Source: Clostridium hydrogenum (GTDB lineage: Bacteria; Bacillota; Clostridia; Clostridiales; Clostridiaceae). Taken from it: 64,000 bases of DNA. The stretch spans positions 502,016 to 566,015 of the forward strand of contig NZ_JAEACT010000002.1 in NCBI RefSeq assembly GCF_021432385.1, in the 5' to 3' direction. Every line of letters begins with the position of its first letter. The stretch's first letter is position 1. The notes under the pieces were generated by a model. That model was not told the DNA's origin and did no database searches. It was given only the letters and a program-made list of their open reading frames with translations. The translations under genes and the position numbers were made by a program. Positions 1-43,602 of this stretch are shown in pieces.

Positions 1-203
1 GCAAATACGCCCATAAATGGTCCAAGCAATAATTGAGGTATTAAAGTTACAGCTAATACCGAAGCAAACTTCGTTCCTGAACCTGTAATTTTAAGTACAT
101 ATAATGACAAAGCAAAATCCTGCATTAACGTTCCTATATTAGATATAATTGATCCTAACATTAACAAGGAAAAATCCTTTTGTTTTAACAGTTTTACATT
201 CAT
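1..203 (-). CDS. MFS transporter, N-terminal fragment (gene runs off window start)
   Basis: ATG at 203..201 followed by MNVKLLKQKDFSLLMLGSIISNIGTLMQDFALSLYVLKITGSG..., the hydrophobic TM1/TM2 pattern of MFS exporters. Its ATG overlaps the TGA stop of the upstream rSAM gene (ATGA), which implies translational coupling. Confidence 0.6.
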   Translation of the reverse strand, partial: MNVKLLKQKDFSLLMLGSIISNIGTLMQDFALSLYVLKITGSGTKFASVLAVTLIPQLLLGPFMGVF

Positions 204-1477
204 ACTATTTCTCCTTTATTATTTATAATATCACTATAATAATGAAGCTTAATTCTATCTTCTAATGTCATGCCTCCTTTAGCTTTAGCAATGCATATAT
301 TAGAATTTTTAAATCTACTCAATTTACAACCGTCCATACACATAGGTAACTCTATGCACTCTCTGCATGCTTTATTATCAAATGGTGACATACTATGAAA
401 TTTATAATATAAAGACTGATCAGTAAAATTTATATTTTTCTTATCTCCTATGCTTCCAAAATACAATCCTTGTTCACCTGCCATAGAGCAAAAAGTCAAA
501 TTTCCTTTTGGATCAATAGTAATAGCATTTGGTGTACTTGCTTCACACTTTACTAATCTATTCACCTTATCCGAATACATATATCCTTTTTCTATAGCCA
601 ATTTATACAAATTATAACAATTTAAATTTTCTTTGTTTTGAAATACATTTACAATCTGAATGTTAACATTCCTTCTATACTTTTCAGGAATTATATCAAA
701 TAACTCAACTATACTTATATAATTATTTTCATCAAGATTTATTCTCAAATTTAAATTAATATTTTCTTGTAACAATTTCACAAAATTCTTTACTACTTTT
801 TCAAAAGTTCCCTCTCCATTAGCAAGAGGCCTTTTTTTATCGTGATAATATTTTGTACCATCTAATGTAATCTGAATATTTTTAATTGATAAATCATTTA
901 ACATACTTATATTTTTATCATTAAACAAATAACCGTTGCTAGTCATTCTAGCTTCATACTCACAATTGTTTTCATCACATATTTCCTTAAATATTTTTGT
1001 TAATTCAACAATTTTATTAAATTGTAACATAGGTTCTCCACCAAACCATGCAATCTTCAGTTTACTTATTTTTTTACACTTATCTTTTACTAAATTAGTA
1101 ATTTTATTTGAAACCTCATCTGTCAAATTTTCATTTTTATGTTCTTCATAGCAATATACACATCTAAAATTACAATTAAGCGTCGTTTGAATAACTAACG
1201 TTGCGGTATCTTGTTGAAATTTTTGTTTATTATATAAAAAACTAAGCCTGCTTATTTCATCAAGCTCATCTGAAACTGCTGCTCCTATTTTAATCATTTT
1301 TTTTATGTATTCAGCTTCTTTTAATTCAAATTTATCATGTTTTAATTTTTTTAATATCCCTTTAATCTGTTCTTTTTCCAAATTATTAAATACTAAATAT
1401 TTTCGCGTTAAAATATTATAAAGTAATGATTTCTTATCATTTACATCTAAAATTATATTATATTTAGACTCCTTCAT
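200..1477 (-). CDS. radical SAM / SPASM-domain peptide-modifying enzyme
   Basis: CxxxCxxC cluster (NCNFRCVYCYEEH) about 100 aa from the N-terminus. Before it is an RRE-sized N-terminal extension. The C-terminal region is Cys-rich (CSMAGEQG...CRECIELPMCMDGCKLSRF...NICIA), typical of SPASM auxiliary cluster domains. RBS upstream. Confidence 0.85.
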   Translation of the reverse strand: MKESKYNIILDVNDKKSLLYNILTRKYLVFNNLEKEQIKGILKKLKHDKFELKEAEYIKKMIKIGAAVSDELDEISRLSFLYNKQKFQQDTATLVIQTTLNCNFRCVYCYEEHKNENLTDEVSNKITNLVKDKCKKISKLKIAWFGGEPMLQFNKIVELTKIFKEICDENNCEYEARMTSNGYLFNDKNISMLNDLSIKNIQITLDGTKYYHDKKRPLANGEGTFEKVVKNFVKLLQENINLNLRINLDENNYISIVELFDIIPEKYRRNVNIQIVNVFQNKENLNCYNLYKLAIEKGYMYSDKVNRLVKCEASTPNAITIDPKGNLTFCSMAGEQGLYFGSIGDKKNINFTDQSLYYKFHSMSPFDNKACRECIELPMCMDGCKLSRFKNSNICIAKAKGGMTLEDRIKLHYYSDIINNKGEIV

Positions 1478-1564
1478 AGTTTTCTCCTTACACAGCTTGA
1501 TATATATGCGAAAATCCGCATATATATCAAGCTGTTTACTTTATTACTATACAAAACTCAAACT

Positions 1565-1729
1565 TTATTTAGTAGATATTACTACACAAAAATTAAGTCC
1601 TGCTTCCTCTTCAGCTGAAAGATCCAATTCTTCATTTTGTATAGCATTGGCTAATTCTGCTGAATTGATATACACCTTTCCTTCTTCAACTTTAACTTGT
1701 TCCTTTGTAACTTTAATTTCCTTTGCCAT
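1565..1729 (-). CDS. small ORF (54 aa), candidate RiPP precursor peptide
   Basis: Absent from the ORF track (<60 aa). AGGAGG (1954..1959 is the other one; here CCTCCT at 1738..1743 on plus), 8 nt before the ATG at 1729. Translation: MAKEIKVTKEQVKVEEGKVYINSAELANAIQNEELDLSAEEEAGLNFCVVISTK. Acidic leader-like region, short hydrophobic C-terminus with a single Cys. Lies immediately upstream of the rSAM/SPASM gene. Confidence 0.55.
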   Translation of the reverse strand: MAKEIKVTKEQVKVEEGKVYINSAELANAIQNEELDLSAEEEAGLNFCVVISTK

Positions 1730-1785
1730 AATAAATTCCTCCTAAAATAATATTTATTTATTTTTAATTAATAATAATTAACAAG

Positions 1786-1944
1786 CTAAGATTTTCCTGT
1801 TACTTTTATTGTTAAAATCTCATATCCTATTCCATTGCTTTCCTCATCAACTTCAGTATCTAATGAAGTATCTTGAATATCTAAATCATTTAAATTCTCA
1901 TCCTGTTTAACTTTACGATTTTTGTTCTTTTTATCCTGTCCCAC
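1786..1944 (-). CDS. small ORF (52 aa), possible second precursor-like peptide
   Basis: AGGAGG (CCTCCT at 1954..1959 on plus), 9 nt before the GTG at 1944. Translation: MGQDKKNKNRKVKQDENLNDLDIQDTSLDTEVDEESNGIGYEILTIKVTGKS. Shares an acidic-then-G-then-hydrophobic C-terminal pattern with the 54-aa ORF. The non-ATG start lowers confidence. Confidence 0.35.
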   Translation of the reverse strand: MGQDKKNKNRKVKQDENLNDLDIQDTSLDTEVDEESNGIGYEILTIKVTGKS

Positions 1945-2014
1945 ATCCAATCACCTCCTTAAAGTGCCATCTTTTTAATATATCATTACTAACTTTTAAA
2001 TTTTAGTGAAAATA

Positions 2015-2584
2015 TTATCCTAATTTATATGGTGCTAATGCACTTATAAATCCATAAGTTTCATCAGCCTCTAAATTTTCTAAGGCTTGATATTTTTCAA
2101 ATAATTCTTCTAAATCTTTTTTAAAATTCACCATTGTTTCTTCATCAGCTTTTATAAAATATGCTTTTATTTTATGAGGCTTTTGCTCATAGTCAGGTAT
2201 ATTCCTTATAATATCCCTTGTCAAAGATGCAAAATGCTGCGCAGATAATTCAATATTTTCTTTATCATTACTTGATTCACAATTATTTTTTACATAATTC
2301 AATATTTCAATATCCGTCGATGCCAATTTATATGTTTTTTCTACCTTACCATCAATTATTCTTACATCTGTTACTTTAATAAGCTTTGCATCAACCAATC
2401 GCTTAACATATAATTGAGTAGAAAAACTAGGAGTATTCAAATCTCTAGAAATTTCTTTTATTGTTTTAGCGCCTGACAAAAGAATCAATAATATGTCTAA
2501 AGCCTTTCCGTTAACAATATCCTTTTTAAATTTATCATCCTCATTAATAAGTGCTACTTCATTTATGCAAGGCATATCAGCCAT
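2015..2584 (-). CDS. putative winged-helix transcriptional regulator
   Basis: N-terminal HTH-like segment ALDILLILLSGAKTIKEISRDLNTPSFSTQLYVKRLVDAKLIKV, resembling ArsR/MarR-type winged helix. Acidic C-terminal domain. Confidence 0.5.
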   Translation of the reverse strand: MADMPCINEVALINEDDKFKKDIVNGKALDILLILLSGAKTIKEISRDLNTPSFSTQLYVKRLVDAKLIKVTDVRIIDGKVEKTYKLASTDIEILNYVKNNCESSNDKENIELSAQHFASLTRDIIRNIPDYEQKPHKIKAYFIKADEETMVNFKKDLEELFEKYQALENLEADETYGFISALAPYKLG

Positions 2585-2601
2585 AGAATCATCTCCTTTC
2601 C

Positions 2602-3990
2602 CTAATTCATTTTAAGTAACGGAACTAGTGCATCTATATCGAATTTTCCAATAGCCGCTAGTCCAATATTGTTTTCATTAAATATTTCTGTTGCAACTCT
2701 GTACACATTTTCTTTTGAAACATGCTTAATATTTCGAACTTCTTGCTCTAATGAAAACGACTTTCCGTAAGATGAGCATTTACCCAAAAACTTTAAATGC
2801 GCCACTATGTTATCTATATCTAATAAAGTTCTTGTTTCAAGAATTCGTTTCGCTCTATCAACTTCTATATCATCAAAACCTTTTTCTTTTATTCTTAAAA
2901 ATTCATTTGTCATAATTTTTACTATCTCTTCTACTGATTCATGAGCACATACAGCCATAAACCCAAGCGTTCCTCTATCTTCATAAAAATTAGTAAAAGC
3001 TCCCAAGTTGTATGCTAGTCCTCTCTTCTGACGAATCTCCTGGCATAACCTTGATTCCATAGTAGGATTACCCAATATAGTTGATAAAACCTCTATGCTA
3101 AGCCTGTCTTCATGGTTGTATGATGGAAGTCTAAATCCTATTGATAAAGCTGAACTTTTCCCGTTATTCACTGAATTAAAATATATGCCAGGATCACTAT
3201 CTACAATTTCTTTATATTTTCTAGTACTCTTATCACTCCATGGTGAAAAACTTTCTTCAATCATTTCTAATGTTTCTTCATAATCAATTCCACCTATAAC
3301 AACTAATGTTGTATTTTCTGGTGTGTATGTTTCATCTATTATTTTTTCTATATCCTCTAGCTTAGCTTTTTTTATATTTTCGATATTTCCAACTATTATT
3401 CTACCTATACCTGTATTTCCCCAAAGTGCTTGACTAGTTCTTTCTTTTATTTGATTAAACGAAGAATAAAAAGATACAGTTTCCTGTGTTACAACTTTTT
3501 TTTCATTCTCAAATAATTCTTTTGAAAAAGTCTTATTGTCCATAACTATACTTGACAAAGTTTCTATGCATTTTCCTAAAGTTCTAGTTAATCCTGTAAA
3601 ATAGTAGCTGGTAGTTTCTTTTGTGGTACCTGCATTATAAACAACACCTTCATATGAAGTTTCGTCAATTAAATTTTTAAATCTTTTGTTATCATAGTTG
3701 TTTATATTAATCATAAGATGTTCTAACAAATGTGATAATCCATTAGTCTCATCATCTTCATGCTTACTTCCTTGCTTTACCCAAACACCACATGCCATCG
3801 TCTTAACAGCTGGTATTTTATGCATAACCACTCGTAATCCATTTTCTAAATATACGGTTAATATATCATACACTTTCTCACCCACTTGCTTAGTTGTTTT
3901 GCTTGTATGTAATAATATCATGTTTTTTTTAAAAAGTAAATAATTTTTATTTACTTTTTTATTTTTTAATTTCTGGATCAATAGAGTCAC
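2602..3990 (-). CDS. M16 family (pitrilysin/insulinase-like) zinc peptidase
   Basis: Inverted zinc-binding motif HxxEH (GLSHLLEHLM). Size and two-lobe organisation fit the M16 family. The likely true start is the ATG at 3921 (MILLHTSK...), which removes the overlap with the upstream small ORF. Confidence 0.8.
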   Translation of the reverse strand: MTLLIQKLKNKKVNKNYLLFKKNMILLHTSKTTKQVGEKVYDILTVYLENGLRVVMHKIPAVKTMACGVWVKQGSKHEDDETNGLSHLLEHLMININNYDNKRFKNLIDETSYEGVVYNAGTTKETTSYYFTGLTRTLGKCIETLSSIVMDNKTFSKELFENEKKVVTQETVSFYSSFNQIKERTSQALWGNTGIGRIIVGNIENIKKAKLEDIEKIIDETYTPENTTLVVIGGIDYEETLEMIEESFSPWSDKSTRKYKEIVDSDPGIYFNSVNNGKSSALSIGFRLPSYNHEDRLSIEVLSTILGNPTMESRLCQEIRQKRGLAYNLGAFTNFYEDRGTLGFMAVCAHESVEEIVKIMTNEFLRIKEKGFDDIEVDRAKRILETRTLLDIDNIVAHLKFLGKCSSYGKSFSLEQEVRNIKHVSKENVYRVATEIFNENNIGLAAIGKFDIDALVPLLKMN

Positions 3991-4120
3991 TAATATATAT
4001 ATTAGTTAATGCATACTTTTGTTGATTGTTTTTATTTGCATTACTAATATTTTTTGCCCCAATATTTAATACCAACAATGCACTTAACCCTATAATTATT
4101 ATTTTTGCTGATTTTTTCAT
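3959..4120 (-). CDS. small secreted peptide (53 aa) with signal peptide
   Basis: Not in the ORF track. GAGGGGG, 7 nt before the ATG at 4120. Translation: MKKSAKIIIIGLSALLVLNIGAKNISNANKNNQQKYALTNIYISDSIDPEIKK. Classic n-h-c signal peptide with an IGA|K cleavage site. Lies divergent to the RNPP-like regulator and co-directional with the M16 peptidase. Confidence 0.4.
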   Translation of the reverse strand: MKKSAKIIIIGLSALLVLNIGAKNISNANKNNQQKYALTNIYISDSIDPEIKK

Positions 4121-4312
4121 CACATTGCCCCCTCTTTTATTAATTGTAGCCTTTTAGGTAAATTTGTTTAATAAAGTAAACTTTGATTTGTTTTACCTTA
4201 TTATATCACTTAACTTTTTTAAAGTAAATATATATTATTTACTTTTATGTTTTTTATTTTTATTAACTATGATATAATTAGATAAGAAATTTCAATTAAA
4301 GGAGAAAGTATC

Positions 4313-5641
4313 ATGAATACTAAAGTTATTACAGCTGGCGAAAAGCTTAAAGATATAAGAAAAAAATATAAGATAAAGCAATATGAATTAAGTGGGAATG
4401 AGCTTACACGAAACATGATAAGCATGATTGAAACTAACAAAGCTGGGCTAACGAAAAACACAGCTGAAATACTACTTAAAAATATTCATATATTATGCGA
4501 AAAAAAATCTATAGATTGTGATGTTACTTTAGAATATTTGCTTGAATCAGATGAAATTCAAGCAAAAAAAATATGTGATGATTTTATTAAATTATTGAAT
4601 TCAAATCCTACGAAAATACTTGAAGATGAATTTGAAACAAGTCTCATTGAAATACAAAAGTTGCTAGATGCATATAAATTGAGGGATAAAAAATTAACAA
4701 TATATTTAAAACTAAGTGATATATTTGATGATTGTCGTGATTTTTATAAGGCATACCTCTATTCTTTAAGAGCTTTTGAAAATTATAATGATTTGTTCAA
4801 CAACCCCGAATTAATAGACTTGATTATTAAAATCACTTATTACTGCAATCATTTAAAAAAATACAAAGAAATGCTAGATTTTGTTAAATTAGCATATATC
4901 TATATGCCTAATCTTCCAAAAGATAAAGAATACAAATTAAAATTCAACACCATAAAAGCTTATAAAAATTTAAAGGATTATAATTCCGCCTTAAGAACAA
5001 TTGATGAAATAGAAAATACTTTTAAAGAAAATTTAAATTCAGATTCTGCAGAAAAAATAAGCATCTTGATTTTTAAAGCCAATTGTCTTAGCGAAAAAAA
5101 ATTTTTTATAGATGCCCTACAAATACACAGAAAAATATTAGAATTGACTGAGGATAATGTGGAACTTCATCTTGTCACATTATGCAATATAATTGAAGTA
5201 TATATAAAAATAAAGGATAGCCAAAAGCTCAAAGAATATATTGATAAATCTATCTTTTATTTAAAAGAATATGACAAATTAGAAAACAAAATTTATTCTT
5301 CTGAGATATATAATCTTATTGGATTGGGATATTACACTATAAATAAATTTGAAATGAGCAAAATATACTTTAACAAGGCTTTAAGTAAAGCCAAAAAATA
5401 TAAAGATGTAGACGTTATAATCTCAGCTTTTGAAAAGCTTTTAAGTATAGCTATAACTACTAATTGTACAGATGAAGTGAATGATTTAAAAAATCAATTG
5501 ATTGAAATAATTTCTCTTGAACTATTGCCTATAAACAATGTTGTGATATTTCAATTTATCAAATATTACAATGACTTAGGTGATAGAGAAACCATTAATG
5601 ATATAGTTAACTTTGTAACTTCTATGCTATCTAAACGTTAA
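4313..5641 (+). CDS. XRE-HTH + TPR-like transcriptional regulator (RNPP/Rgg-like quorum-sensing regulator family)
   Basis: N-terminal XRE-type HTH (KLKDIRKKYKIKQYELSG...ISMIETNK). It is followed by about 380 aa of helical repeats with TPR-like periodicity (AYLYSLRAFENYNDL..., GLGYYTINKFEMSKIYFNKALSKAKK). Good RBS. Confidence 0.6.
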   Translation: MNTKVITAGEKLKDIRKKYKIKQYELSGNELTRNMISMIETNKAGLTKNTAEILLKNIHILCEKKSIDCDVTLEYLLESDEIQAKKICDDFIKLLNSNPTKILEDEFETSLIEIQKLLDAYKLRDKKLTIYLKLSDIFDDCRDFYKAYLYSLRAFENYNDLFNNPELIDLIIKITYYCNHLKKYKEMLDFVKLAYIYMPNLPKDKEYKLKFNTIKAYKNLKDYNSALRTIDEIENTFKENLNSDSAEKISILIFKANCLSEKKFFIDALQIHRKILELTEDNVELHLVTLCNIIEVYIKIKDSQKLKEYIDKSIFYLKEYDKLENKIYSSEIYNLIGLGYYTINKFEMSKIYFNKALSKAKKYKDVDVIISAFEKLLSIAITTNCTDEVNDLKNQLIEIISLELLPINNVVIFQFIKYYNDLGDRETINDIVNFVTSMLSKR

Positions 5642-5686
5642 TATTTTTAATTAAATTACAATTTTAATGTTTTATATTGTTTCTCT

Positions 5687-7090
5687 CTACTCTAACGGAA
5701 TAGTAAAATAAAAGGTACTTCCATTATCTTTTAAGCTTTTGCAATAAATTTCTCCTCCATGTTTTTCTACAATATACTTGCAGGTTGAAAGTCCTAACCC
5801 TGAACCTTGTATACGTGAATTTCTGGACTTGTCTCCTCTGTAAAATTTATTGAATATATAAGGCATATCTTCTGGTGATATGCCTATTCCATTATCTTCA
5901 ATGCAAATAAATAGATATCTATTTTCTATATACGATTTAAAACTTATTGTTAAATTACCCTTGCCATATTTCATTGAATTGCTTATAAGATTAAAAACTG
6001 CCTGATATATTCTTATATTATCTACATTTATAATTCCCTCTGGAATACCTTTGTCCCATATAAACTCTATATTTTTACTCTTAAGTTCTAAATCTATTTC
6101 TTCTATTAACTTTTGTAAAAATGGCTTTATAGATACTTCTTTCTTTCTAATTGTTAGCACTTCCAAATCTGCTTTTGATTGTTCAAGTAAATCGCTAACC
6201 AGACTATTTAAAGTATCTATTTTTTTTAAAATTATAGAGGTATATTCCTCTTTTTCTTCCAGCGTTTCTGCCATACCATCTCTAATCGCCTCTACATATG
6301 CCTTAATTGATGACAGCGGTGTTTTTATATCATGAGAAATTGCTGCTATTACTTCTTTTTCGGACTTTTTAATGTTCTCCTCTTTTTTAATATGATCACC
6401 TAATTCATCACGCATAAGTTCAAAGGCATAGGACAAGTCTCCAACTTCATCTTCGCTATTATAAGTAACATAATTATCAAACTTTCCTTCTATAATGTCA
6501 TTTGAACTTTGTGTTATTTTTTTTATTGGTTTTAGTACTTTTTTGCTTACAAAAATTTTAAAGCATAATAAAAGCAAAGATAATATTACAAGCATTATCA
6601 CCTCTGGAGTTAAAGTGATTAATTTTCGCTTAAATAATGAATTTTCTTCAAGATCCGTATGTTTTATGAAAGCCACAAAAAAACCTTTATTTTCACCATT
6701 AATAACAATTGGAAAACTACTTTTAATATAGCCCTTATATTTGATCGCTGAACTATTATCAAACTGAAGAAAACTTTCCAAGCTTTGACTTTTGCCTATA
6801 TTTAAGCTTCCTGAAGCATATAACACTTCGCCTTTATTGTTAAGCACCACATAAGGATATTTCCAAGTTGTAAAATTGCTCTGCCCACTAGCAAAGCTTT
6901 CTTCAACTTTTTGAATTTTTTGCGCACAAATAAGCCTAGTTTTATTATAATAAAGGCTTTCATCTTCATTTGGATAAAAAGTAAAAGTCAAAGCAATAGC
7001 TAAGACTTCTAAAGTAATTATGGCTATAATAAAAATGTTTATTAACTTAGCAATACTCTTATTATCACTATGCCTCAAGCTTATACCCAA
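5687..7090 (-). CDS. sensor histidine kinase
   Basis: Two TM segments flank an extracytoplasmic domain of about 120 aa. HisKA H-box AAISHDIKTPLSSI. HATPase_c N and G boxes (NLISNSMKYG, GSGLGLS). Confidence 0.85.
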   Translation of the reverse strand: MGISLRHSDNKSIAKLINIFIIAIITLEVLAIALTFTFYPNEDESLYYNKTRLICAQKIQKVEESFASGQSNFTTWKYPYVVLNNKGEVLYASGSLNIGKSQSLESFLQFDNSSAIKYKGYIKSSFPIVINGENKGFFVAFIKHTDLEENSLFKRKLITLTPEVIMLVILSLLLLCFKIFVSKKVLKPIKKITQSSNDIIEGKFDNYVTYNSEDEVGDLSYAFELMRDELGDHIKKEENIKKSEKEVIAAISHDIKTPLSSIKAYVEAIRDGMAETLEEKEEYTSIILKKIDTLNSLVSDLLEQSKADLEVLTIRKKEVSIKPFLQKLIEEIDLELKSKNIEFIWDKGIPEGIINVDNIRIYQAVFNLISNSMKYGKGNLTISFKSYIENRYLFICIEDNGIGISPEDMPYIFNKFYRGDKSRNSRIQGSGLGLSTCKYIVEKHGGEIYCKSLKDNGSTFYFTIPLE

Positions 7091-7760
7091 CCCCTCTAAC
7101 AGTTTTTATATAATTAGCTCCAAACTTACCCATTTTGTCCCTTAACCTATTAATATATACTGCAACAGCGCTGATTTCCCCGTACTCATTAAAACCCCAA
7201 ACCTTTTCATATATTTGTTCCTTTGACAACACTTGGTTCGGATTTCTGCATAAAAGTGTGAGCATTTCAAATTCTTTAGAGGTTAAAGATAAAAACTCTC
7301 CATTTATAGAAACATCATAGGATGCTGTGTTTATTTCTAAAGCTTTTATTTTAATAATGTTTTGTGCCTCTTCTGAAACTCCTGTATTAAAATCTTGGTA
7401 TCTTCTTATATGCGCCTTAACTCTAGCTACTAGTTCAAATGGACTAAAAGGTTTTGTAATATAATCATCTGCACCCAAGCCAAGGCTTAAAACTTTGTCC
7501 AAATCACCGTCTTTAGCCGATAACATAATTACAGGTACTTTTGACTCACTTCTTATTATCCTGCACACTTCCATGCCATCTAGCTTTGGAAGCATTATAT
7601 CCAAAATCACCAAATGGGGCTTAAAACTTTTAAATATATCCAAAGCTTCCTTACCGTCATTTGCCGTACTAACCTGAAAGCCCTCTTTAGTTAGATACTT
7701 TTCTTCTATCCTTGCTAAATCAACCTCATCATCAACAATTAAAATTCTCTCATTGGACAT
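7068..7760 (-). CDS. OmpR/PhoB-family response regulator
   Basis: Receiver domain (ILIVDDE..., LVILDIMLP, K in LSAKD) plus a C-terminal winged-helix DNA-binding domain (LTSKEFEMLTLL..., GVGYKLEA). Overlaps the HK start by 23 nt. Confidence 0.9.
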   Translation of the reverse strand: MSNERILIVDDEVDLARIEEKYLTKEGFQVSTANDGKEALDIFKSFKPHLVILDIMLPKLDGMEVCRIIRSESKVPVIMLSAKDGDLDKVLSLGLGADDYITKPFSPFELVARVKAHIRRYQDFNTGVSEEAQNIIKIKALEINTASYDVSINGEFLSLTSKEFEMLTLLCRNPNQVLSKEQIYEKVWGFNEYGEISAVAVYINRLRDKMGKFGANYIKTVRGVGYKLEA

Positions 7761-7798
7761 AATACAACCCCCACTTTTTCCCTTAATTATAACATAGG

Positions 7799-8557
7799 TT
7801 ACCAGCCTTTACTCTCAAGAAAGCTAAACACTTCTTCTTTTCTTTCTTCTTGTCCCATGCTAGTATATTTGGGCATATTAAGTTCTCCATCAATTCTTCC
7901 ATCTTTAATGTAGAGTAGCCTATTTGCTCTGCAAGCTGCTTTAGCATCATGAGTTACCATTACAATTGATTGTCCTTCATTATTAATCTTTGAAAGTATA
8001 TCAAGTACTTCCTGTCCACTGGAGGAATTTAATGCTCCCGTAGGTTCATCTGCAAAAATCACCTCTGGCTTATTTATAAGCGCTCTACATATAGCAACTC
8101 TTTGCTTTTGGCCGCCAGAAAGCTGTGATGGATACTTGCTTTCATGCTCTTTCAATTCAAATGCATTTAATAATTTATCTATAGTTTGTCTTAACTCATT
8201 TTTGTCCCTTTTCATCTTATAAGTTGGAGCCGCTATATTTTCATATATATTTAAATCATTAATCAAGTTTATTCCCTGAAATACAAAAGAAAGCTTCTCT
8301 CTTCTTATTTTGTCCATTTCCTTTTTATCTATTTTTTTTTAATCCTTGTCTAGCATTTTAACTTCACCTATGGTAGCATTATCCATACCACTTAAGAGGT
8401 ACATTAAAGTTGATTTACCTGAGCCCGAGCTTCCCATTATTACAGTAAAATCACCTTTATATATTTTTAGATCCATATTCTTAATCACATTATAATTTTC
8501 GCCGTCCGTATCAAAGCTTTTGCAAAGACCTTTTGTTTCTATTATTACTTCTTTCAT
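7799..8557 (-). pseudogene. ABC transporter ATP-binding protein (MacB/BceA-like), disrupted by a frameshift
   Basis: Walker A GSSGSGKST is in ORF 8339..8557 and ends KMLDKD*. ABC signature LSGGQKQRV and Walker B IFADEPT are in ORF 7799..8317, in another frame. The two reading frames exchange within about 8 nt next to an A10/T10 homopolymer (8331..8340). Confidence 0.6.
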
Positions 8558-8569
8558 TCAAAATTCCTC

Positions 8570-10924
8570 CTATTCCTCATTAAGCTCCTGAACCCTTACC
8601 TTTCCAATGGATAGTGACGATATTAAGGTACAAAGTACATAAACAAAAATAGATGCTATTAACCCTACTGCCAATAACTCTGGCTTTATATCTGCAGGAT
8701 AATTATATATTCCAAAGGTACTCATAATTAAATTCATAATTTTGCAGAAAGTAATAGAAAATACCGGAATACATATAATTGAAGCTATTACTGCCAATAT
8801 TAAAACATAAAATAGGTTTCCCTTTATAAGATCAGGTGTACTGTAACCTATCGCTTTATACACACAAAACTCTCTTCTGCTATTTATATTCATTAGTAAA
8901 ATAATCGAAAACACATTTATTGCTCCAACCACAACTATCATTATCATAAAAGGAGTAAGCGCCGCCTTCATTGGAACCAAAGAACCGCTTAACATGGAGC
9001 TAAAGCTTTCTATACTTTTTTCCACATCTATAGCGCTTCCAAACCTATTTTTCAATATTTTTTTAAAGCTGTCATAGTCTTTAGAATTCTTGAGATTAAA
9101 GCTTATTGCATCACTAACATAACTTTTATCTGCAGACTTTACTGTACTTTTAAGAACTCTCACATTCATACCCATATACATCATAGATTGGTAATCTCCA
9201 ACTATCAAAAGATTTTTCTCTTCACCACTAATATAAACTTTAATATAATCACCTAGTTTTTTATGGGTCTTTTCCATCACTTTTTTACTAACTGCTATCT
9301 CATTTTCATTTTTGGGATTTCTTCCTTCTACAACCTCTTCTTTTATAGCATTATCATAGGTGTCATAGACCTCACTTATAAGACTGCCCTCACCATCTAG
9401 TTCATCTTTTGATATTACAATTTTTGCATATTGGAAGGTCCCATCCACGTAATTTTTTATTTTATCATTCTTTTTAATCCACTCTAAAATATCTGGTGTC
9501 TTTTTCGTGTTCTTTATCCTTATTCTATACTGTGCGTTATCAAGACCAAACCAAAAGCTGGTTTTTTCAGATAACTTAGAAAGATCGCTATAGTTTATAA
9601 CAGAGAAAGCTACTACATAAGAGCAAACAAATAATACTAAAAATAATATTATAGATAATTTTTTATAATAAAATATTTTTCTAAGCGCCTGACTTATTGG
9701 AGTAAATTTCGTTTCTATTATTTTTAAGGTAGTCCCCTTTTTATTATTAACTGGCATTCCTATCCTAAATACTTCTACTGGTGATATATTTTTTGTTCTT
9801 TTTATCACACCATAAATACTGCTTAACATTAAAATTATTACAAATGCTAAAGTAACTATTATTGGCACAACTTCAAATGTATTAAACTTTTCTCCATAAA
9901 CCTTAAAATTACTACTAAGCATAGCATTTATAAAAAAACTTGCTAAAAATGAACCAATAACAGCAAAGATTATAACTATAAAACTATAAGCTTTCATATA
10001 AATATTCATTATTGTATTAGCAGAATAACCTATAGCCTTATAAACTCCAATAGTTTTATATTCTTTTGCTATACTATCCAATATAGATGCTCGTATAACA
10101 ACTGCCGACACTAAAAGTATTATAATTGCAAAAGCACATACAAAAGCTCCTATTATTTCATTCATAATTTCAGCACTTATCTTTGCCCTGTTTATATCAA
10201 CTAAAGAAATAGGTATTTGAATATTAGTATTTTTTCTATAATATTTAACTATGTTGTCACAGCTTCCACCATCTCTTGCGTACACCGTAACTAGCTTCAC
10301 AGGGATTCCATATATACTTTGAAGCTGATTTTTACTTACATAAAATCTATCAACATCCATAAAGCTTGAAACACTATACGCATCGGAATATATTCCTGTT
10401 ATTTTAAGTTTTGTTTTACTATCTGGATTTTCAATTGTAATGTAATCTCCAAGTGATAATTTATAAGTTTGTGCAATTATTGAAGTTATAAAACACTGAC
10501 CATCTTGAAGACTGCTGCCACCCTTTAAAAACTTTAAGCTTCCAAATTCTCCATCTTTATATGTCATAAAAAATTTTGTAGACAATTTAATTTCCTTATT
10601 ATTGTCCATAATTTTAGACCTAATAACTTTTACCCTTTCTGCAATGGCAACCTTTTTAACCTCTGCATTTTTCTCAAAAACTTTTTTTGCATTTAAAGCT
10701 TGTCTGTCTAGATCATTAACTCCTGGTACAATTGCATATAGCGTTGGTGCGTTCGTATCCTTAATAAGTTCACTCATAGGTTTATCTACACTTATAATTA
10801 TTCCCAAAGCTGCCGTTAGCATCAAAGAACTCACAAGAACAACAAGTCCAATCAAAAACATCTGAAGCTTTTTATTTTTGATTTTGTTTAACCACATTTT
10901 TTTCACCCACTTTGCGTAATTCAT
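8570..10924 (-). CDS. ABC transporter permease, FtsX family (MacB/BceB-like, two FtsX modules)
   Basis: 784 aa with N-terminal TM, a large extracytoplasmic domain and FtsX-like 4-TM bundles (GYSANTIMNIYMKAYSF...; AIGYSTPDLIKGNLFYV...). Sits immediately upstream of the ATPase on the same strand. Confidence 0.8.
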   Translation of the reverse strand: MNYAKWVKKMWLNKIKNKKLQMFLIGLVVLVSSLMLTAALGIIISVDKPMSELIKDTNAPTLYAIVPGVNDLDRQALNAKKVFEKNAEVKKVAIAERVKVIRSKIMDNNKEIKLSTKFFMTYKDGEFGSLKFLKGGSSLQDGQCFITSIIAQTYKLSLGDYITIENPDSKTKLKITGIYSDAYSVSSFMDVDRFYVSKNQLQSIYGIPVKLVTVYARDGGSCDNIVKYYRKNTNIQIPISLVDINRAKISAEIMNEIIGAFVCAFAIIILLVSAVVIRASILDSIAKEYKTIGVYKAIGYSANTIMNIYMKAYSFIVIIFAVIGSFLASFFINAMLSSNFKVYGEKFNTFEVVPIIVTLAFVIILMLSSIYGVIKRTKNISPVEVFRIGMPVNNKKGTTLKIIETKFTPISQALRKIFYYKKLSIILFLVLFVCSYVVAFSVINYSDLSKLSEKTSFWFGLDNAQYRIRIKNTKKTPDILEWIKKNDKIKNYVDGTFQYAKIVISKDELDGEGSLISEVYDTYDNAIKEEVVEGRNPKNENEIAVSKKVMEKTHKKLGDYIKVYISGEEKNLLIVGDYQSMMYMGMNVRVLKSTVKSADKSYVSDAISFNLKNSKDYDSFKKILKNRFGSAIDVEKSIESFSSMLSGSLVPMKAALTPFMIMIVVVGAINVFSIILLMNINSRREFCVYKAIGYSTPDLIKGNLFYVLILAVIASIICIPVFSITFCKIMNLIMSTFGIYNYPADIKPELLAVGLIASIFVYVLCTLISSLSIGKVRVQELNEE

Positions 10925-11150: not shown

Positions 11151-12322
11151 TATATTGTATAACATACAATTCCAAATACTAGAATTAAAGCACTAAAATT
11201 AAATACCCAGTCATATCCGAGGTTAGAAGCAACAACTCCCCCTACTAAAGGTCCTAATCCTTGTCCGACATTGGCACCAATAAAAAATGTACTTGAAGCT
11301 AATCCTCTTTTTTCACTACCCATTTTATGAAAACATTCTGCTTGCAGCGCAGGTTGAGCAAATCCTTGTCCGAATGCTTTAAAAATTGCAGCCAATATTA
11401 TCATCCAAAGAACACTTCCATGACCGAGAAGTAAAGCTTCCATAATAGCACACAATAAGGCAGGATATAAAACAGTTGCAAGACCTTTTTTATCATACAG
11501 CTTTCCAGCCACAGGTCTTGTAAAAATAAGAAACAATGCATTTACTACAAAATACATTCCTACTCCAGCTATCTTACGCTGTTCTCCCATTAAAACTAAA
11601 AATGAGGTAACAAGACCATTTCCCATAAAAAATAAGCCACCAAAGAAAGATAATGGCAATACTTCAAATGCGATAATATCTTTTAAATGAATAGAACGTT
11701 TTTTAGTCACAGTATTTTCTTTAATTGACTTACTTTTGTTAGGCAAAAAATTCATAAACAAAGCCGCCACTATTATAAGTACTGCTGATACCATAAAGGT
11801 TTTAGAAATCCCAAATCTGCTTGAAGCTTCTATTCCTATTTCAGGACCAAAGGCAGTTGCAATAATTTGACTAATACCAAGATAGCCTATGCCTTCTCCC
11901 ATTCTCTCCTTTGGTATAAACTCCGTTGCCCAAGCAACACTAGTAGCACTGGTAATACTAAAACTAGCTCCATGCAGTATTCTAAAGAAAATTAAAAATC
12001 CAATATTAGGCGACAAACTATACCCTAAGGTTGCTATGCCATTTATAAAAGTACCAATTATCATTACATACTTTTTACTTGTTCTATCTGTAAGTATTCC
12101 CCCAAAGGGTCCTATAAAAAGAGCTGTAAGTGAAAACAAGCCTACAATTACGCCTGCCATACTTAAAGAAGCTCCTAATCCTATAGAATACTTTGATAAT
12201 AGTGGATAAACAAGATAAAATGCTAAAAATGTAAGTGTACTAATTGCTAATAAACTAATAAACTTAATATTCCATAATTTTTCACCTTTTTTTGTTTCTA
12301 GGTTTACTTCTGTCTCCTTCAT
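11114..12322 (-). CDS. MFS transporter
   Basis: 402 aa, 12 predicted TM helices, MFS motif-like GxLaDrxGrk region (GGILTDRTSKKYVMIIG). The C-terminal tail is encoded by a repeat element. Confidence 0.8.
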   Translation of the reverse strand: MKETEVNLETKKGEKLWNIKFISLLAISTLTFLAFYLVYPLLSKYSIGLGASLSMAGVIVGLFSLTALFIGPFGGILTDRTSKKYVMIIGTFINGIATLGYSLSPNIGFLIFFRILHGASFSITSATSVAWATEFIPKERMGEGIGYLGISQIIATAFGPEIGIEASSRFGISKTFMVSAVLIIVAALFMNFLPNKSKSIKENTVTKKRSIHLKDIIAFEVLPLSFFGGLFFMGNGLVTSFLVLMGEQRKIAGVGMYFVVNALFLIFTRPVAGKLYDKKGLATVLYPALLCAIMEALLLGHGSVLWMIILAAIFKAFGQGFAQPALQAECFHKMGSEKRGLASSTFFIGANVGQGLGPLVGGVVASNLGYDWVFNFSALILVFGIVCYTIYNRTEQRVKSRE

Positions 12323-12395
12323 TTATAATTTCTCCCATCTCTTATAAATATGTTAGAAATCTAACAACTTTTAACACCTATAGACTATCACACTT

Positions 12396-12413
12396 TAGTT
12401 GAACGGTCAACTA
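12396..12413. promoter_or_regulatory. near-perfect palindrome TAGTTGA-ACGG-TCAACTA in the divergent MFS/MFS-MarR promoter region (candidate MarR operator)
   Basis: Inverted repeat read directly from the sequence. Its position between divergently transcribed transporter genes and upstream of the MarR operon is typical for MarR operators. Confidence 0.35.
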
Positions 12414-12490
12414 TATTGTGATATTGTATATATAGGAACATATGTTAAATATAGGTGCTGCTTCATGAACCATTATAGACATACAACTTG

Positions 12491-12820
12491 GAAATTTAAT
12501 TCAGAGTACAACTGACAGAGTACAGTGTACAGTGAAGGATGATTTTATTCCGCCTTGCTACAGAAAATCCTATAACTTATTTTTTGATTGCTTATGCAAT
12601 CGCTATATTATCAATGTTTTTCAGCGAAGCTGACAACATTTAAGTTTAAGATTTGCCTAACGTAAATTTATTAATATACAAAGTTTTATTGTACTACTAT
12701 TGAAGGTACTTCTACTAAGTTAAAGAACCTACATGGGCTTTACGCCCAAACCCCTAGTATGTGTATCCTTAACTGTACTCTGTACTCTGTCATCTGTACT
12801 CTGTACTCTAATTTAATGGT
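12491..12820. mobile_element. MITE-like element copy (inverted orientation, with about 100 bp of extra internal sequence)
   Basis: Left TIR CAGAGTACAACTGACAGAGTACAGTGTACAGTGAAGGATGATTT. Internal module ...TTCAGCGAAGCTGACAACATTTAAGTTTAAGATTTGCC, the reverse complement of the core of the 25.9 kb copy. Right TIR CTGTACTCTGTACTCTGTCATCTGTACTCTGTACTC (12766..12808). Confidence 0.65.
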
Positions 12821-20596: not shown

Positions 20597-23191
20597 TTAT
20601 GTTATTAATCCTACCTTCTTAGCCTTTTCTACCGCTTGCACTCTATTTGAAACTTCAAGCTTAGAATAAATATTTATCATATGAGTTTTTACCGTAGCCA
20701 AAGATATGTGCAGGATTCCTGCGATTTCCTTATTTGAGTGTCCTGCGCAAAGAACCTTTAGTACTTCCTTTTCTCTCTCACTTAAGAGGTCATTTTTCTG
20801 GGTTTTATTTGGCTCTTCTATATCAATTATCCTTTGAATAAATTCTTTTTCATTATTATTCAATTCTATTTCATTATCATTTTTAAGCTTTTTAATAAGC
20901 TGAAGCAGCCATTTACCTTCAATTATATAAACTCTTAAATATCTATTTTGTATGCTATAATGAATAGCTTCTCTAAGCAAATTATATATTTCTCTTTTTT
21001 TTGTGTTAAAATCTTTTTCAAGTATTAAAATCTTTATTACTATTCCTTCAATTAGAAAGCTTCCCATTGAATATTTTCTACAACCTTCCAAAACTTCATT
21101 AATACCCTTTAAAGCTTCTTCCTTTTGTGAAAGCAAATATAAAACTCTGCAATAAACTATTTTATCTTCAATAGTTACATACATTTCTTTATTGTTTCTA
21201 TATTTCTCAATTAATTCTTTATATTCAATAAGCTCTGATTCTTCATATGCTTTAAGTGGCAGTGTAAATTTTAATTTTGCAGAAAAAAAGCGGCAAGGAA
21301 GGTAGGTTTTTGATGCACTATATTCCCCTATGAGTTTATCTGCTATTTCAATTCCCTTCTTAATCTCGCCCTTAACAAAGCAAAACTCCATATTGTGATA
21401 AACTATGGTATTTTTTATAATGGGCGCGTGCATTTCTAAATCTCCAGATACTATACTAAGGCTTTTTTCAGCTTTATCAATTTCATACCTTTTTATGTAT
21501 ATACCTGCAACCCCTAAATCATATACAAATTTAAAGTAGCTTAAAAAACTGTTTTTATCAACAATGTTTTTAATCTCTCTATAAGTTTCAATCACTTTAG
21601 AAAATTCGCCCATCTCTTCAAACTTTGAAGCCATCTGAAATTTTGCAAAAATACTAAGAGAAACCATATTATACTTTTTAGCAATTCTATCAGTTTCTAA
21701 AATATAGTACATAGCCTTATCATATTCATCGTATTTATAAAGAAACATCCAAATGTTAGAATAGATTATTGCCCTAGTAATCTCACTGAGCTTAACTTTT
21801 TCAATAAGCTTTAAATCTTCATCTGTAATAGTTGTATGGTAATTATATATATACAATTTAAATATATTTGCAATGGCTTTTAGTTCTGTTTTATCACTGT
21901 TATTTATCTTTTCCACTATTTGCTTGCACGCACCTACATCCATATTCGATAAATGATAAAAAATTCTTTGAACCATGAGCTCACTACTATCCATAAGTTT
22001 TTCTAAGGGTATTTCTTTAATATATGGCAATAACTTCATGTTGGTTATATTTTCTTCTATATCCTTAATCGCCTTATCGTAAGCTTTTATTTCTAACAAG
22101 TGCTTTATGCCTTCGTTAAGATCGTCATTTTCCTTTAAATAATTATATGCCCTTAAGTGAAGTTCTTTCTTTTCACTTTCCTCTAGCTTTTCAAAATTGA
22201 TATTCAAAAACTCCTTAAAAAGATGATGATATCTAAATACATTTTCTCTCTCATTAAGCGTTATTATAAATAAGTTTTTATCTACTAAGCAATTTATTAT
22301 ATCTCTAGAATTGTCCATTTTAAGTATATAATTGCAAAACTCTGCATCAAACCAATTTAAAATTGAAGTTCTTATAATAAAATTTCTTTCTTCTTCACTA
22401 AGTCCTTTAAGTATTTCCTCTGTTAAATATTCAATAACATATTTATTAATGACATCTATTTTTTCAATATCCTTTTTATTTTTAAATGCCAAAGCTGTAA
22501 GTTGTATTCCGCCTATCCAGCCTTCTGAGATGCTAAAAACCTTACTCACAAACTCTTCTGATAAATCAAACTTTAACGTATTTTTTATAAAGTTTAAACA
22601 TTCCTCCTTTGAAAATTTAAGTTGACTTTCATCAAACTCCAAAATTTCATCCCTTACCCTAAGCTCCCCAAGATAAATAGGGAACTCCTCTCTGGTAAGG
22701 AACACATAATGCATATTTGTGGGAGAATATTTTATAAGATATTCTACTGTAGCATTTAATGCCTTTTCTTTAATGTAGTGATAATCATCAAACACCACTA
22801 TAATATCTTCCTCTGTTGAAATTTTATTTACTATATAGGCTGCAATATTTAACACATCATCTTTATTTACCATACCATTCAAAAAATCAATAAGCTTTTC
22901 ACCATGTTCTGGAATATAATCTTTAATAGCTTCAATAAAGTAATACCAAAAAGAATATATATTATTATTACTCTCATCCAAGTTTACCCACTGAATATTT
23001 TTAGGTTTCTTATCTTCTATAAAAGAAGAGAGCAGTGTAGACTTACCGCTTCCTGCTGCTCCCTTTATTATTGTTACTTTGTATTCAAATATATTACTTA
23101 GTTCACTTATTAGCCTTTCTCTTTTAATGCAATTTTTTCTCGGTATTGGCGCTATAAGCTTTGTTCTTATCAAATTAAATTCATTTTTCAT
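20597..23191 (-). CDS. LuxR-family transcriptional regulator, large ATP-binding (LAL/MalT-like)
   Basis: 864 aa. N-terminal P-loop GAAGSGKST. Long helical/TPR-like middle region. C-terminal LuxR HTH (EIAGILHISLATVKTHMINIYSKLEVSNRVQAV). Confidence 0.8.
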   Translation of the reverse strand: MKNEFNLIRTKLIAPIPRKNCIKRERLISELSNIFEYKVTIIKGAAGSGKSTLLSSFIEDKKPKNIQWVNLDESNNNIYSFWYYFIEAIKDYIPEHGEKLIDFLNGMVNKDDVLNIAAYIVNKISTEEDIIVVFDDYHYIKEKALNATVEYLIKYSPTNMHYVFLTREEFPIYLGELRVRDEILEFDESQLKFSKEECLNFIKNTLKFDLSEEFVSKVFSISEGWIGGIQLTALAFKNKKDIEKIDVINKYVIEYLTEEILKGLSEEERNFIIRTSILNWFDAEFCNYILKMDNSRDIINCLVDKNLFIITLNERENVFRYHHLFKEFLNINFEKLEESEKKELHLRAYNYLKENDDLNEGIKHLLEIKAYDKAIKDIEENITNMKLLPYIKEIPLEKLMDSSELMVQRIFYHLSNMDVGACKQIVEKINNSDKTELKAIANIFKLYIYNYHTTITDEDLKLIEKVKLSEITRAIIYSNIWMFLYKYDEYDKAMYYILETDRIAKKYNMVSLSIFAKFQMASKFEEMGEFSKVIETYREIKNIVDKNSFLSYFKFVYDLGVAGIYIKRYEIDKAEKSLSIVSGDLEMHAPIIKNTIVYHNMEFCFVKGEIKKGIEIADKLIGEYSASKTYLPCRFFSAKLKFTLPLKAYEESELIEYKELIEKYRNNKEMYVTIEDKIVYCRVLYLLSQKEEALKGINEVLEGCRKYSMGSFLIEGIVIKILILEKDFNTKKREIYNLLREAIHYSIQNRYLRVYIIEGKWLLQLIKKLKNDNEIELNNNEKEFIQRIIDIEEPNKTQKNDLLSEREKEVLKVLCAGHSNKEIAGILHISLATVKTHMINIYSKLEVSNRVQAVEKAKKVGLIT

Positions 23192-23224
23192 TTAATCATC
23201 CTTTTTAAAACATATTAAACCCAC

Positions 23225-38858: not shown

Positions 38859-38869
38859 ATATTCTCCTT

Positions 38870-41472: not shown

Positions 41473-41574
41473 TAACTTTTCCCCCTATGATATTTATTTT
41501 TTATATCCTTTTTAATATCGAGAAGCACTGCCAACAAAATTAATTGCTAGCAAGTGCTAAAGGTTATATATTAA

Positions 41575-41709
41575 CTAGCAGCAGTGATAGCCACCAAAAG
41601 AAAATCCACTTACAACTTCTTCAATCTCACTAAGATCATCAAATGAGACCATTTCTAAATTTTCTTCATCTAATATTTTGTTTTCATTTTCTCTTTCATT
41701 CTTTATCAT
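41575..41709 (-). CDS. RiPP precursor peptide paralog 1 (44 aa)
   Basis: GGAGGG RBS. Translation: MIKNERENENKILDEENLEMVSFDDLSEIEEVVSGFSFGGYHCC*. Not in the ORF track. Confidence 0.7.
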   Translation of the reverse strand: MIKNERENENKILDEENLEMVSFDDLSEIEEVVSGFSFGGYHCC

Positions 41710-41849
41710 AATAAACCCTCCCCTCTTATCTGATTATTTGTTTATAATCTTATTACCTTGTAAAGAACCATATGTTTATTTATTCATATTATTCAAATAT
41801 ATGTCATACAAGGTTAAAATTTTTTTATTATTTTCCTAACTAATCTTAA

Positions 41850-41984
41850 TTAGCAACAGTGATAGCCACCAAAAGAAAATCCACTTACAACCTCTTCAAT
41901 CTCACTAAGATCATCAAATGTAACCATTTCTAAATTTTCTTCATTTAATATTTTGTTTTCATTTTTCTCTTCATTTTTTGTCAT
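41850..41984 (-). CDS. RiPP precursor peptide paralog 2 (44 aa)
   Basis: RBS GGAGCG. Translation: MTKNEEKNENKILNEENLEMVTFDDLSEIEEVVSGFSFGGYHCC*. Confidence 0.7.
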   Translation of the reverse strand: MTKNEEKNENKILNEENLEMVTFDDLSEIEEVVSGFSFGGYHCC

Positions 41985-42033
41985 AATAAAACGCTCCTTT
42001 AATCTTTTAATTTACCATATTAACTATTCTAAA

Positions 42034-42168: not shown

Positions 42169-42252
42169 AATAAAACACCCCTTTTAATTTTTTTAATATA
42201 TAATAAACTCAATCAAAAATTATTAAAACTTTGTTATATTATCTATTGTTAA

Positions 42253-42387: not shown

Positions 42388-42466
42388 TGCAAATCCCCCC
42401 CCTTCAAATTTTATAATTTCAATTAACTATTTAGTTTTACATTTATTTATTGATTGAATTTATATC

Positions 42467-43579: not shown

Positions 43580-43602
43580 GAAAGTATTTTTTTATTAAAA
43601 AT

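Follow-up and report, generated by a model that had tools for sequence, protein, structure and literature searches.

One end of a 64,000-nucleotide stretch of the Clostridium hydrogenum genome (contig NZ_JAEACT010000002.1, positions 502,016 to 566,015), hereafter the window, carries a putative gene cluster for a peptide synthesized ribosomally and then modified post-translationally (a RiPP). The locus occupies window positions ~1-5641, and the genes of its cassette follow one another on the minus strand in the order M16 peptidase, p189 (a regulator), pepA and pepB (two small peptides), a hairpin, a radical S-adenosylmethionine (rSAM)/SPASM enzyme, and a major facilitator superfamily (MFS) exporter. 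We confirmed that the six genes form a real, conserved operon. The features of the locus, with the evidence for each, are as follows.

1..203, minus strand: first 67 codons of a gene for an MFS_3-type exporter, which leaves the window; translation and orthologues
200..1477, minus strand: predicted radical SAM/SPASM peptide maturase, 425 residues; Pfam, NCBIfam, AlphaFold2 (AF2), and PDB matches
1492..1535, minus strand: perfect 20-bp stem-loop between pepB and the ribosome-binding site (RBS) of the rSAM gene; folding energy against shuffled sequences
1565..1729, minus strand: pepB, putative precursor peptide of 54 residues; RBS AGGAGG and family alignment
1786..1944, minus strand: pepA, conserved Cys-free peptide of 52 residues; GTG start, RBS AAGGAGGTGA, and synteny
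2015..2584, minus strand: p189, predicted ArsR/PH1932-like winged-helix regulator, 189 residues; homologues, AF2, and Foldseek
2602..3873, minus strand: putative M16B zinc peptidase with HLLEH, 423 residues; Pfam M16 and M16_C, start placed by homology
3912..3940, minus strand: promoter-like site, candidate operon promoter; consensus scan only
3959..4120, minus strand: open reading frame (ORF) of 53 residues, putative secreted quorum-sensing propeptide; RBS AGAGGGGG and homologous ORFs at the same position
4313..5641, plus strand: divergent helix-turn-helix (HTH) and tetratricopeptide repeat (TPR) regulator of 442 residues, putative RRNPP-type receptor; sub-cut-off HTH_19 and TPR matches, orthologues

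All the elements that a preliminary description of this DNA had listed were found on the minus strand, among them a single M16 gene and an MFS start codon (ATG, 203-201) that overlaps the rSAM stop (202-200) as ATGA. The span given there, 1-3990, holds the right genes and is too short, as the locus also includes the putative quorum-sensing pair at 3959..5641. Both small ORFs proved real and recur, each with its RBS, at the same places in about 50 independent loci, which is more than chance. For the first, pepA, the GTG start is at 1944, six bases downstream of AAGGAGGTGA; the gene ends at 1786 and encodes 52 residues without Cys. A mechanical ORF list opens it at TTG 1950, which gives 54 residues. 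The second, pepB, runs from 1729 to 1565 behind AGGAGG, and its product is identical to the sequence quoted in that description, with one Cys. The G+C content of the region is 24-32% and that of the window overall ~27%. The window edge at position 1 cuts the cluster, and no Rfam model matched within window positions 1-6000.

The gene order is conserved among Clostridia

We examined about 50 related loci and found the identical cassette order wherever the contig was long enough. The genera that carry the cassette are Clostridium, Wukongibacter, Anaerocolumna, Fusibacter, Roseburia, and Pseudobutyrivibrio, and it also occurs in human-gut metagenomes. Relatives of the rSAM enzyme comprise one C. 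hydrogenum protein that is 100% identical and about 55 full-length proteins with at least 35% identity, all from Clostridia. The contigs of seven of these relatives, together with four loci from a genome scan, contained, in this order, M16, p189, two small ORFs, rSAM, and MFS_3. A metagenome scan anchored on p189 added 39 further loci, many of them from the human gut, in which the order M16-p189-pepA-pepB-rSAM-MFS was unchanged where the contig sufficed; it was also kept in Pseudobutyrivibrio xylanivorans, Clostridium sulfidigenes, and one gut metagenome contig. Across the Clostridium-type loci, identity was 65-68% for M16, 65-72% for p189, and 44-49% for rSAM. Homologous loci thus do keep conserved small ORFs upstream of the rSAM gene, and the one directly upstream is always pepB.

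Two reduced loci, L081 and L087, retain pepB and rSAM and lack M16, p189, and pepA. L081, from Clostridium amazonitimonense, carries three short pepB-like genes in tandem along with two ABC transporters. L087 retains only pepB, rSAM, and MFS of the cassette and is broken up by genes of a transposase and of group II introns; at 511-4693 and 11401-12720 of that locus, the cassette is flanked by a DDE transposase and by reverse transcriptases of group II introns. The presence of mobile-element genes around the reduced cassette suggests that M16, p189, and pepA were lost from L087 through insertion events. Because pepB and rSAM occur without the other three genes at both loci, we tie the rSAM enzyme to pepB.

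A plasmid location of the cassette was rejected, as p189 had no match among 72,556 plasmids.

pepB has the anatomy of a RiPP precursor

pepB encodes MAKEIKVTKEQVKVEEGKVYINSAELANAIQNEELDLSAEEEAGLNFCVVISTK. Its leader spans approximately residues 1-44 (ending in GKVYINSAELANAIQNEELDLSAEEEAG) and is followed by the core LNFCVVISTK with a single Cys. A family profile, built from an alignment of twelve sequences and used as the search query, revealed at least 138 pepB proteins, all annotated "hypothetical" and free of Pfam domains; the window's own pepB matched no Pfam or NCBIfam model, the NCBIfam peptide models included. The family shares the leader consensus DGKVVI(S/T/E)SEELA(N/A)AIQ..(L/V)DL...EEA(A/G), after which comes a hypervariable core of 9-20 residues (107 unique cores, median length 12).

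Within these cores, Cys is the residue that persists. It is present in 102 of the 107 (one Cys in 38, two in 59, and three or four in 5), and the 5 cores without it resemble versions of a single gut type that were truncated or frameshifted. Cys is the last residue in 30 of the 102 Cys-containing cores. Asn makes up 8% of core residues overall and precedes the first Cys at position -3 in 24 of the 102, at -2 in 15, and at -1 in 12. A group of N-x(1-3)-C cores is recognizable: LNFCVVISTK (window), LNFCIIIGGN, WNIICQISSTKL, DFNICLIIRRN, and LTINFCRVGESR. The cores have no conserved aromatic, Lys, or Thr position. By its anatomy pepB appears to be a RiPP precursor, as the preliminary description had proposed for the 54-residue peptide, and a single Cys, on which that description had remarked, is normal in the family, where such cores form a regular subclass (38/107).

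In P. xylanivorans (locus L129, 5854-6524), one pepA gene is accompanied by three pepB-like genes, one with a shortened leader that lacks DGKVVISS.

The rSAM enzyme is a predicted peptide maturase of an unnamed clade

The CxxxCxxC motif of the rSAM enzyme is formed by C102, C106, and C109. These three residues are invariant in 22 homologues, as are seven C-terminal Cys residues of the SPASM region arranged as C311...C330...C371-x2-C374-x5-C380-x3-C384...C395. Pfam identified Radical_SAM and Fer4_12, and the SPASM model scored 17.2 bits, below its cut-off of 21.5. The top NCBIfam hidden Markov models were Clo7bot (209 bits), TIGR04463 (207), and CefB (203), with cut-offs of 525-600, followed by FlmE/OhkG (150), geopeptide (129), PapB (108.5), CcpM (94), and the SCIFF maturase (91.1). 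The ranthipeptide maturase models also stay below their cut-offs, which are 340 for PapB and 425 for SCIFF. Since no named maturase family has a curated cut-off that the enzyme reaches, its reaction is not transferable by homology.

Among solved structures, the best match by sequence was CteB (5wgg, E = 1.8e-15), then SkfB (E = 1.5e-7). The AF2 model (pLDDT, the predicted confidence, 89.6) has an RRE-type (RiPP recognition element) N-terminal domain at residues ~7-86, with strands at 7-11, 16-21, and 26-31 and helices at 32-43, 52-64, and 74-86 (pLDDT ~94). The RRE-sized extension noted earlier thus takes a beta3-alpha3 RRE fold in the model. Foldseek ranked CteB first, with a template modeling (TM) score of 0.66-0.68 over the full length including the N-domain, followed by anSME, TigE, SuiB, ChlB, and SkfB; the epimerase EpeE also matched. 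By NCBIfam and by the CteB match, the enzyme groups with RiPP maturases and not with non-RiPP families. From the Cys pattern, the profile matches, the CteB match, and the RRE topology, we conclude that it is, as predicted from sequence and model, an RRE-rSAM-SPASM peptide maturase of a clade without a curated NCBIfam name. The peptide family, likewise without a curated Pfam or NCBIfam name, appears from its sequences to belong to the rSAM/SPASM RiPPs.

Known systems and the likely reaction on pepB

The preliminary description had ascribed subtilosin-like logic to the locus. The parts list is indeed shared: in the subtilosin A locus (sboA-albABCDEFG) of Bacillus subtilis, too, the gene of an rSAM/SPASM maturase is directly preceded by a small precursor gene, the operon also encodes an M16-family peptidase and an exporter, and here as there a Cys-based crosslink is expected. 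The M16 pair, the exporter type, the core type, and the maturase family differ. Subtilosin has an ABC exporter and a 35-residue, head-to-tail cyclized core with three Cys-to-C-alpha bridges, whereas the window and the full-cassette Clostridium-type loci have one HxxEH M16B protein and an MFS_3 pump, cores of 9-20 residues with 1-2 Cys at the C-terminal end, and in addition pepA and the ArsR-like regulator. Two M16-like proteins, the AlbE/AlbF complex, serve subtilosin (PMC10885120). The sactipeptide hairpin pattern, with several Cys donors in the N-terminal half, is not seen in pepB, whose 1-2 Cys sit near the C-terminus and whose cores end at Cys in 30 of 102 cases; nor does the maturase join a named sactisynthase family, with best NCBIfam scores of ~205 bits and SkfB at only E = 1.5e-7 by sequence. 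The subtilosin comparison is one of analogy, not membership.

Similar in core pattern is the NxxC system of streptococci (NxxcA/NxxcB), in which NxxcB joins Cys to an upstream Asn through a beta-thioether and also accepts Ala, Gln, and Asp (PMC9389541). The likeness lies in a short core, where many members have Asn 1-3 residues before Cys (the window peptide has LNFC, others in the pepB family NIIC, NFGC, or NFYC), in the rSAM/SPASM maturase, and in an adjoining quorum-sensing regulator and small peptide (PMC9389541). The two are likened by core pattern and neighborhood, not by sequence, and Asn is not universal in pepB (24/102 at -3). The leader family, M16, p189, and pepA differ from, or are absent in, the streptococcal cluster, and in place of shp/rgg we find a long HTH-TPR regulator and a propeptide bearing a signal peptide-like segment.

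Three further comparisons concern the enzyme or the single Cys. CteB, which acts on CteA (thermocellin, a SCIFF ranthipeptide), is the best structural match over RRE, rSAM barrel, and SPASM, and CteB and PapB are both thioether-forming maturases of Cys-containing peptides; however, CteB is only 18-19% identical, and neither the six Cys of SCIFF precursors nor the CxxxD/E repeats of PapA occur in pepB cores, which have 1-2 Cys near the C-terminus. Clo7bot (TIGR04334), TIGR04463 (an rSAM family associated with C-rich peptides), and CefB (NF038107) are the top profile matches, near full length for TIGR04463 and CefB, and are maturases predicted for Cys-containing peptides in Firmicutes, but the enzyme scores about one third of their cut-offs. 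To our knowledge, these three families are bioinformatic predictions without determined chemistry. The kgr cluster carries out N-methylornithine chemistry via extra enzymes, which are absent from the present cluster. Its enteropeptin precursor KgrA, compared by description only, is a single-Cys sactipeptide and offers a precedent for a thioether RiPP from a one-Cys precursor (PMC10288494).

Judging from the sequences, we lean toward thioether chemistry of the rSAM enzyme on pepB, most likely one thioether from the Cys to an upstream residue. The partner is placed upstream since 30 of the 102 cores end at Cys. Asn45 is the candidate because of the enrichment of Asn near Cys and the NxxcB precedent, although we regard an upstream Asn as a tentative and, on balance, doubtful choice of partner.

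The alternative that survives best keeps the cluster and the precursor and assigns the enzyme another reaction: conversion of Cys to formylglycine or a thioaldehyde (anSME-like), epimerization, modification of the C-terminal Cys, or a sulfur-free C-C or C-O crosslink. The enzyme's place below every curated family cut-off leaves room for this, as do the second rank of anSME among the structural matches and the further matches to SuiB, ChlB, and EpeE, the variable acceptor position in pepB cores, and the chemical diversity of SPASM enzymes (PMC9389541). Against it stand the Cys, the sole residue kept in otherwise hypervariable cores (102/107), and the best profile and structure matches, which are maturases of Cys-rich peptides and thioether synthases. 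An anSME-like reaction is further opposed by the count of invariant SPASM Cys, seven and not eight. The known C-C and C-O types are opposed by the lack of any conserved aromatic, Lys, or Thr; the C-C crosslink that the preliminary description had offered as an alternative to a thioether is disfavored because no aromatic residue is conserved among the cores. We consider such another reaction unlikely, though the most serious competitor to the thioether. The seven-Cys SPASM set is reportedly like that of CteB, with its open-site auxiliary cluster, and unlike that of anSME.

pepA is a second, Cys-free peptide family

pepA lies 3-70 nucleotides after p189 in every complete cassette. Its product is Lys-rich at the N-terminus and very acidic in the middle, with the motif EE-x-x-G-(I/V/L)-(G/A/S)-(Y/I)-(E/I)-(I/V/F) and a variable tail of 5-9 residues; Cys is never present in the examples seen. 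No Pfam or NCBIfam model matched pepA. A phmmer search with pepA alone against 1.84 billion representatives returned two close homologues along with a repeat protein (P0303) that is spurious; a single 52-residue query is too weak at that database size. In a profile-profile comparison, pepA residues 18-37 aligned with pepB residues 25-44 (IQxxxLDxxxxEExxG); the match is weak (E = 1e-3, probability 21%) and stops exactly at the putative leader/core junction of pepB. The N-terminal leader segment of pepB, GKVVIxSEELA, is missing from pepA.

We rejected pepA as a second copy of the precursor, as it represents a separate family, conserved and free of Cys, that goes with the regulator and the M16 module. 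It belongs to a peptidase/regulator module since it is absent together with M16 and p189 in L081 and L087.

PQQ (pyrroloquinoline quinone) and mycofactocin are made from Glu/Tyr or Val-Tyr via an rSAM enzyme and a peptidase, and pepA could by the same token be the key substrate, giving a cofactor-like or signaling molecule from its GYEI motif, with pepB secondary. The pepA core motif is far better conserved than the pepB core, the M16 gene has a weak PqqF match, pepA lies upstream of the hairpin in the segment of presumed high expression, and some loci encode a third Cys-free peptide with FEYEK/GxYE motifs. However, the family does not always keep the Tyr and Glu of GYEI: they are replaced in several loci (GIGIEI in five, GISYII in L129), which argues against a PQQ-like Glu/Tyr reaction. 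L081 and L087 carry pepB and rSAM without pepA, p189, and M16, and the leader segment present in pepB is the one that pepA lacks. A PQQ- or mycofactocin-like substrate was accordingly rejected as the main interpretation of pepA, and we consider it improbable that pepA is the key product of the cluster.

The third peptide lies between pepA and pepB at L084 5496-5675, L086 5432-5608, and L131 5758-5934, with the motif ..NEE(A/V)(N/S)LF(E/Q)YEKAN..TG(V/F/L)YE..; it does not occur in the window.

For the role of pepA, we considered a second substrate or co-product of the M16 peptidase and an acidic ligand or antagonist of p189. These can be joined in a broader proposal, to which we give limited credence, that M16, p189, and pepA constitute a new control or co-product device for RiPPs and that the rSAM reaction on a lone near-C-terminal Cys may fall outside the sactionine and ranthionine types. 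Under that proposal, pepA may be a second product released by M16, or a ligand or antagonist of p189 that couples processing to transcription, and it would share only the protease-proximal leader box with pepB.

The peptidase, the regulator, and the exporter

The M16 ORF is open from 3990 to 2602 and matches PF00675 (78 bits) and PF05193 (140 bits). Its start was placed at GTG 3873 and not at 3990, in line with the 423-residue orthologues and their RBS. HxxEH is present in 16 of 16 M16 orthologues, whose N-termini and RBS align, and the best PDB match is 3hdi (E = 2.4e-43), an entry with the title "Processing protease". By sequence, the protein is an M16B zinc peptidase and a putative leader peptidase. 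M16 proteins known to remove RiPP leaders include PttP1/P2 (class III lanthipeptides) and, in the case of subtilosin, AlbEF (PMC10885120).

p189 has weak profile matches to TrmB and PRK06474 and only 60 homologues, all with E < 1e-31 and 38-91% identical. Its AF2 model (pLDDT 71, moderate) shows a winged helix and a C-terminal helical domain. Foldseek matched it to 4g6q (E = 2.6e-6), PH1932 (1uly/2cwe), Phr (2p4w), and CzrA/HlyU with probability 1.0 and whole-chain TM scores of 0.35-0.39. These matches agree with the earlier call of a winged-helix regulator and make p189 a predicted cassette-specific, ArsR-like regulator of the DNA-binding type. We rejected p189 as a stand-alone RRE, as its fold is that of ArsR/MarR DNA-binding regulators and the rSAM enzyme has its own RRE.

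ArsR-type sensors often use N-terminal Cys residues as ligands. Near the N-terminus of p189, Cys6 (codon 2567-2569) falls within the motif D(I/L)PCI(Y), which is almost invariant and lies in an arm that is modeled with low confidence.

The full-length MFS orthologues (424-457 residues), encoded directly after rSAM, match PF05977 MFS_3 and MFS_1.

The hairpin and the putative quorum-sensing neighbors

The hairpin at 1535-1492 has a folding energy of -31.6 kcal/mol (z = -7.3 against shuffles). Strong hairpins are found between pepB and rSAM in nearly all related loci, and their sequence is not conserved. A stem-loop after the structural gene is common in bacteriocin operons. Just upstream of the M16 start lies the promoter-like site, TTTACT-17-TATTAT with a TG.

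The 53-residue ORF has an N-terminus that looks by eye like a signal peptide and a C-terminal ..SIDPEIKK. Together with the HTH-TPR gene, it forms a pair immediately upstream of M16, and the same position is held by such a pair in L082, L084, L086, and L131. HTH-TPR orthologues, 34-69% identical, are in place at L082, L084, and L086, and regulators at the same position of L090 and L131 were recognized by phmmer or gene call only.

Other lineages have other modules at this position. In Wukongibacter, an Agr set (LytTR regulator, kinase, and AgrB with an AgrD-like tail) takes the place of the HTH-TPR pair, and in Lachnospiraceae a 634-residue HTH protein occurs with its own small ORF resembling a signal peptide. 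That three different peptide-signaling modules adjoin one cassette suggests density-dependent control. RRNPP systems beside RiPP clusters are a known theme (PMC10075063; PMC9389541).

The Agr-type module of Wukongibacter sp. spans 256-3304 of locus L088, where the AgrB ORF ends in the AgrD-like stretch MNKRILNYIAKNAISVAKLSSKSTCIVFTYQPKVPAQLKK.

A model for the operon

Taken together, these results are consistent with a quorum-sensing-controlled RiPP operon from an uncharacterized family, a reading to which, in full, we assign a probability of roughly 0.6. That the locus is a RiPP cluster with pepB as the substrate of the rSAM enzyme is very probable. We propose that, at high cell density, the HTH-TPR receptor and the secreted propeptide would turn on the M16-p189-pepA-pepB-[hairpin]-rSAM-MFS operon and that the hairpin would hold peptide transcripts in excess of enzyme transcripts. 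The RRE domain of the rSAM enzyme would bind the pepB leader (GKVVIxSEELANAIQ), and the radical SAM cluster and two SPASM auxiliary clusters would join the sulfur of Cys47 to a carbon of a nearby, most probably upstream, residue, with Asn45 as the candidate, to give a product in which a single thioether closes a small ring (-2 Da). The lone M16B protein would then remove the leader after the EExxG/A box (after EEAG in pepB), and the MFS_3 pump would export a product of ~10 residues. ArsR-like p189 may regulate the operon, and pepA may work with the M16/p189 module.

Several observations speak against this model. No NCBIfam family cut-off (340-600) is reached by the rSAM enzyme, the best score being 209 bits against 600. 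In the cores, Asn or Gln near Cys is missing in 34 of 102, and the Asn-to-Cys spacing varies, being NxC in the window and NxxC or NxxxC elsewhere. The role of pepA is left unexplained. The coding strand of the hairpin has no U-tract, so we take the hairpin to be not a canonical terminator but a putative attenuator or mRNA-stabilizing element that sets the peptide:enzyme ratio. The promoter-like match is weak, and such sites are as many as chance expects. For the receptor, the match to HTH_19 scores 21.7 bits and those to TPR models 16-20 bits, none of which reaches its Pfam cut-off, and its RRNPP membership is thus only probable.

A last alternative, that the small ORFs arose by chance where the DNA is AT-rich (short ORFs are frequent at ~27% G+C, and neither peptide has a Pfam or NCBIfam match) and that the rSAM enzyme is a non-RiPP housekeeping enzyme, can be set aside as it is already contradicted by the conservation of protein, position, and order across genera, the strong RBS on both ORFs, and the at least 138 pepB homologues.

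Because three kinds of quorum-sensing module flank the cassette, its product is probably an antimicrobial or a signal that anaerobic communities use under density control. The cassette is compact and transplantable, six genes with at least 138 natural core variants, some of them from abundant human-gut Lachnospiraceae, and one peptide, one rSAM enzyme, and one protease offer a direct experimental entry. It opens to study a single-Cys radical-SAM chemistry with few known precedents and to characterization a stand-alone M16B leader peptidase and the pair of pepA and a cluster-specific regulator. A literature search of incomplete coverage found no description of the pepB/rSAM family, an absence that is no proof. 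We regard the locus as a solid genome-mining lead rather than a surprise.

Other observations in the window and at related loci

In L082, the closest metagenomic relative, a second radical SAM protein of 571 residues is encoded at 9084-10799, ~500 bp downstream of the MFS gene; the equivalent region in C. hydrogenum lies beyond the window edge.

Next to the locus, window positions 5687-10924 (minus strand) encode a histidine kinase, an OmpR-type regulator, an ABC ATPase ORF, and an FtsX/MacB permease. The ATPase ORF (7799-8317) matched only the second half of the ABC_tran profile and is likely truncated or frameshifted. A role of these genes in immunity was considered and is unsupported, as they are not kept beside the cassette in other genomes.

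At 20597-25810 (minus strand), two adjacent proteins of ~860 residues have C-terminal LuxR/GerE domains, one of them with MalT-like TPR and AAA regions. The stretch 36342-45954 (minus strand) encodes an FtsX/MacB permease (36342-38858), a radical SAM protein (40066-41472), a 783-residue protein with a ketosynthase domain (43603-45954), and, at 38870-40066 and 42467-43579, two products without a Pfam match. The preliminary description, which had called the present locus the second, probably implied this stretch as the first RiPP-like one.

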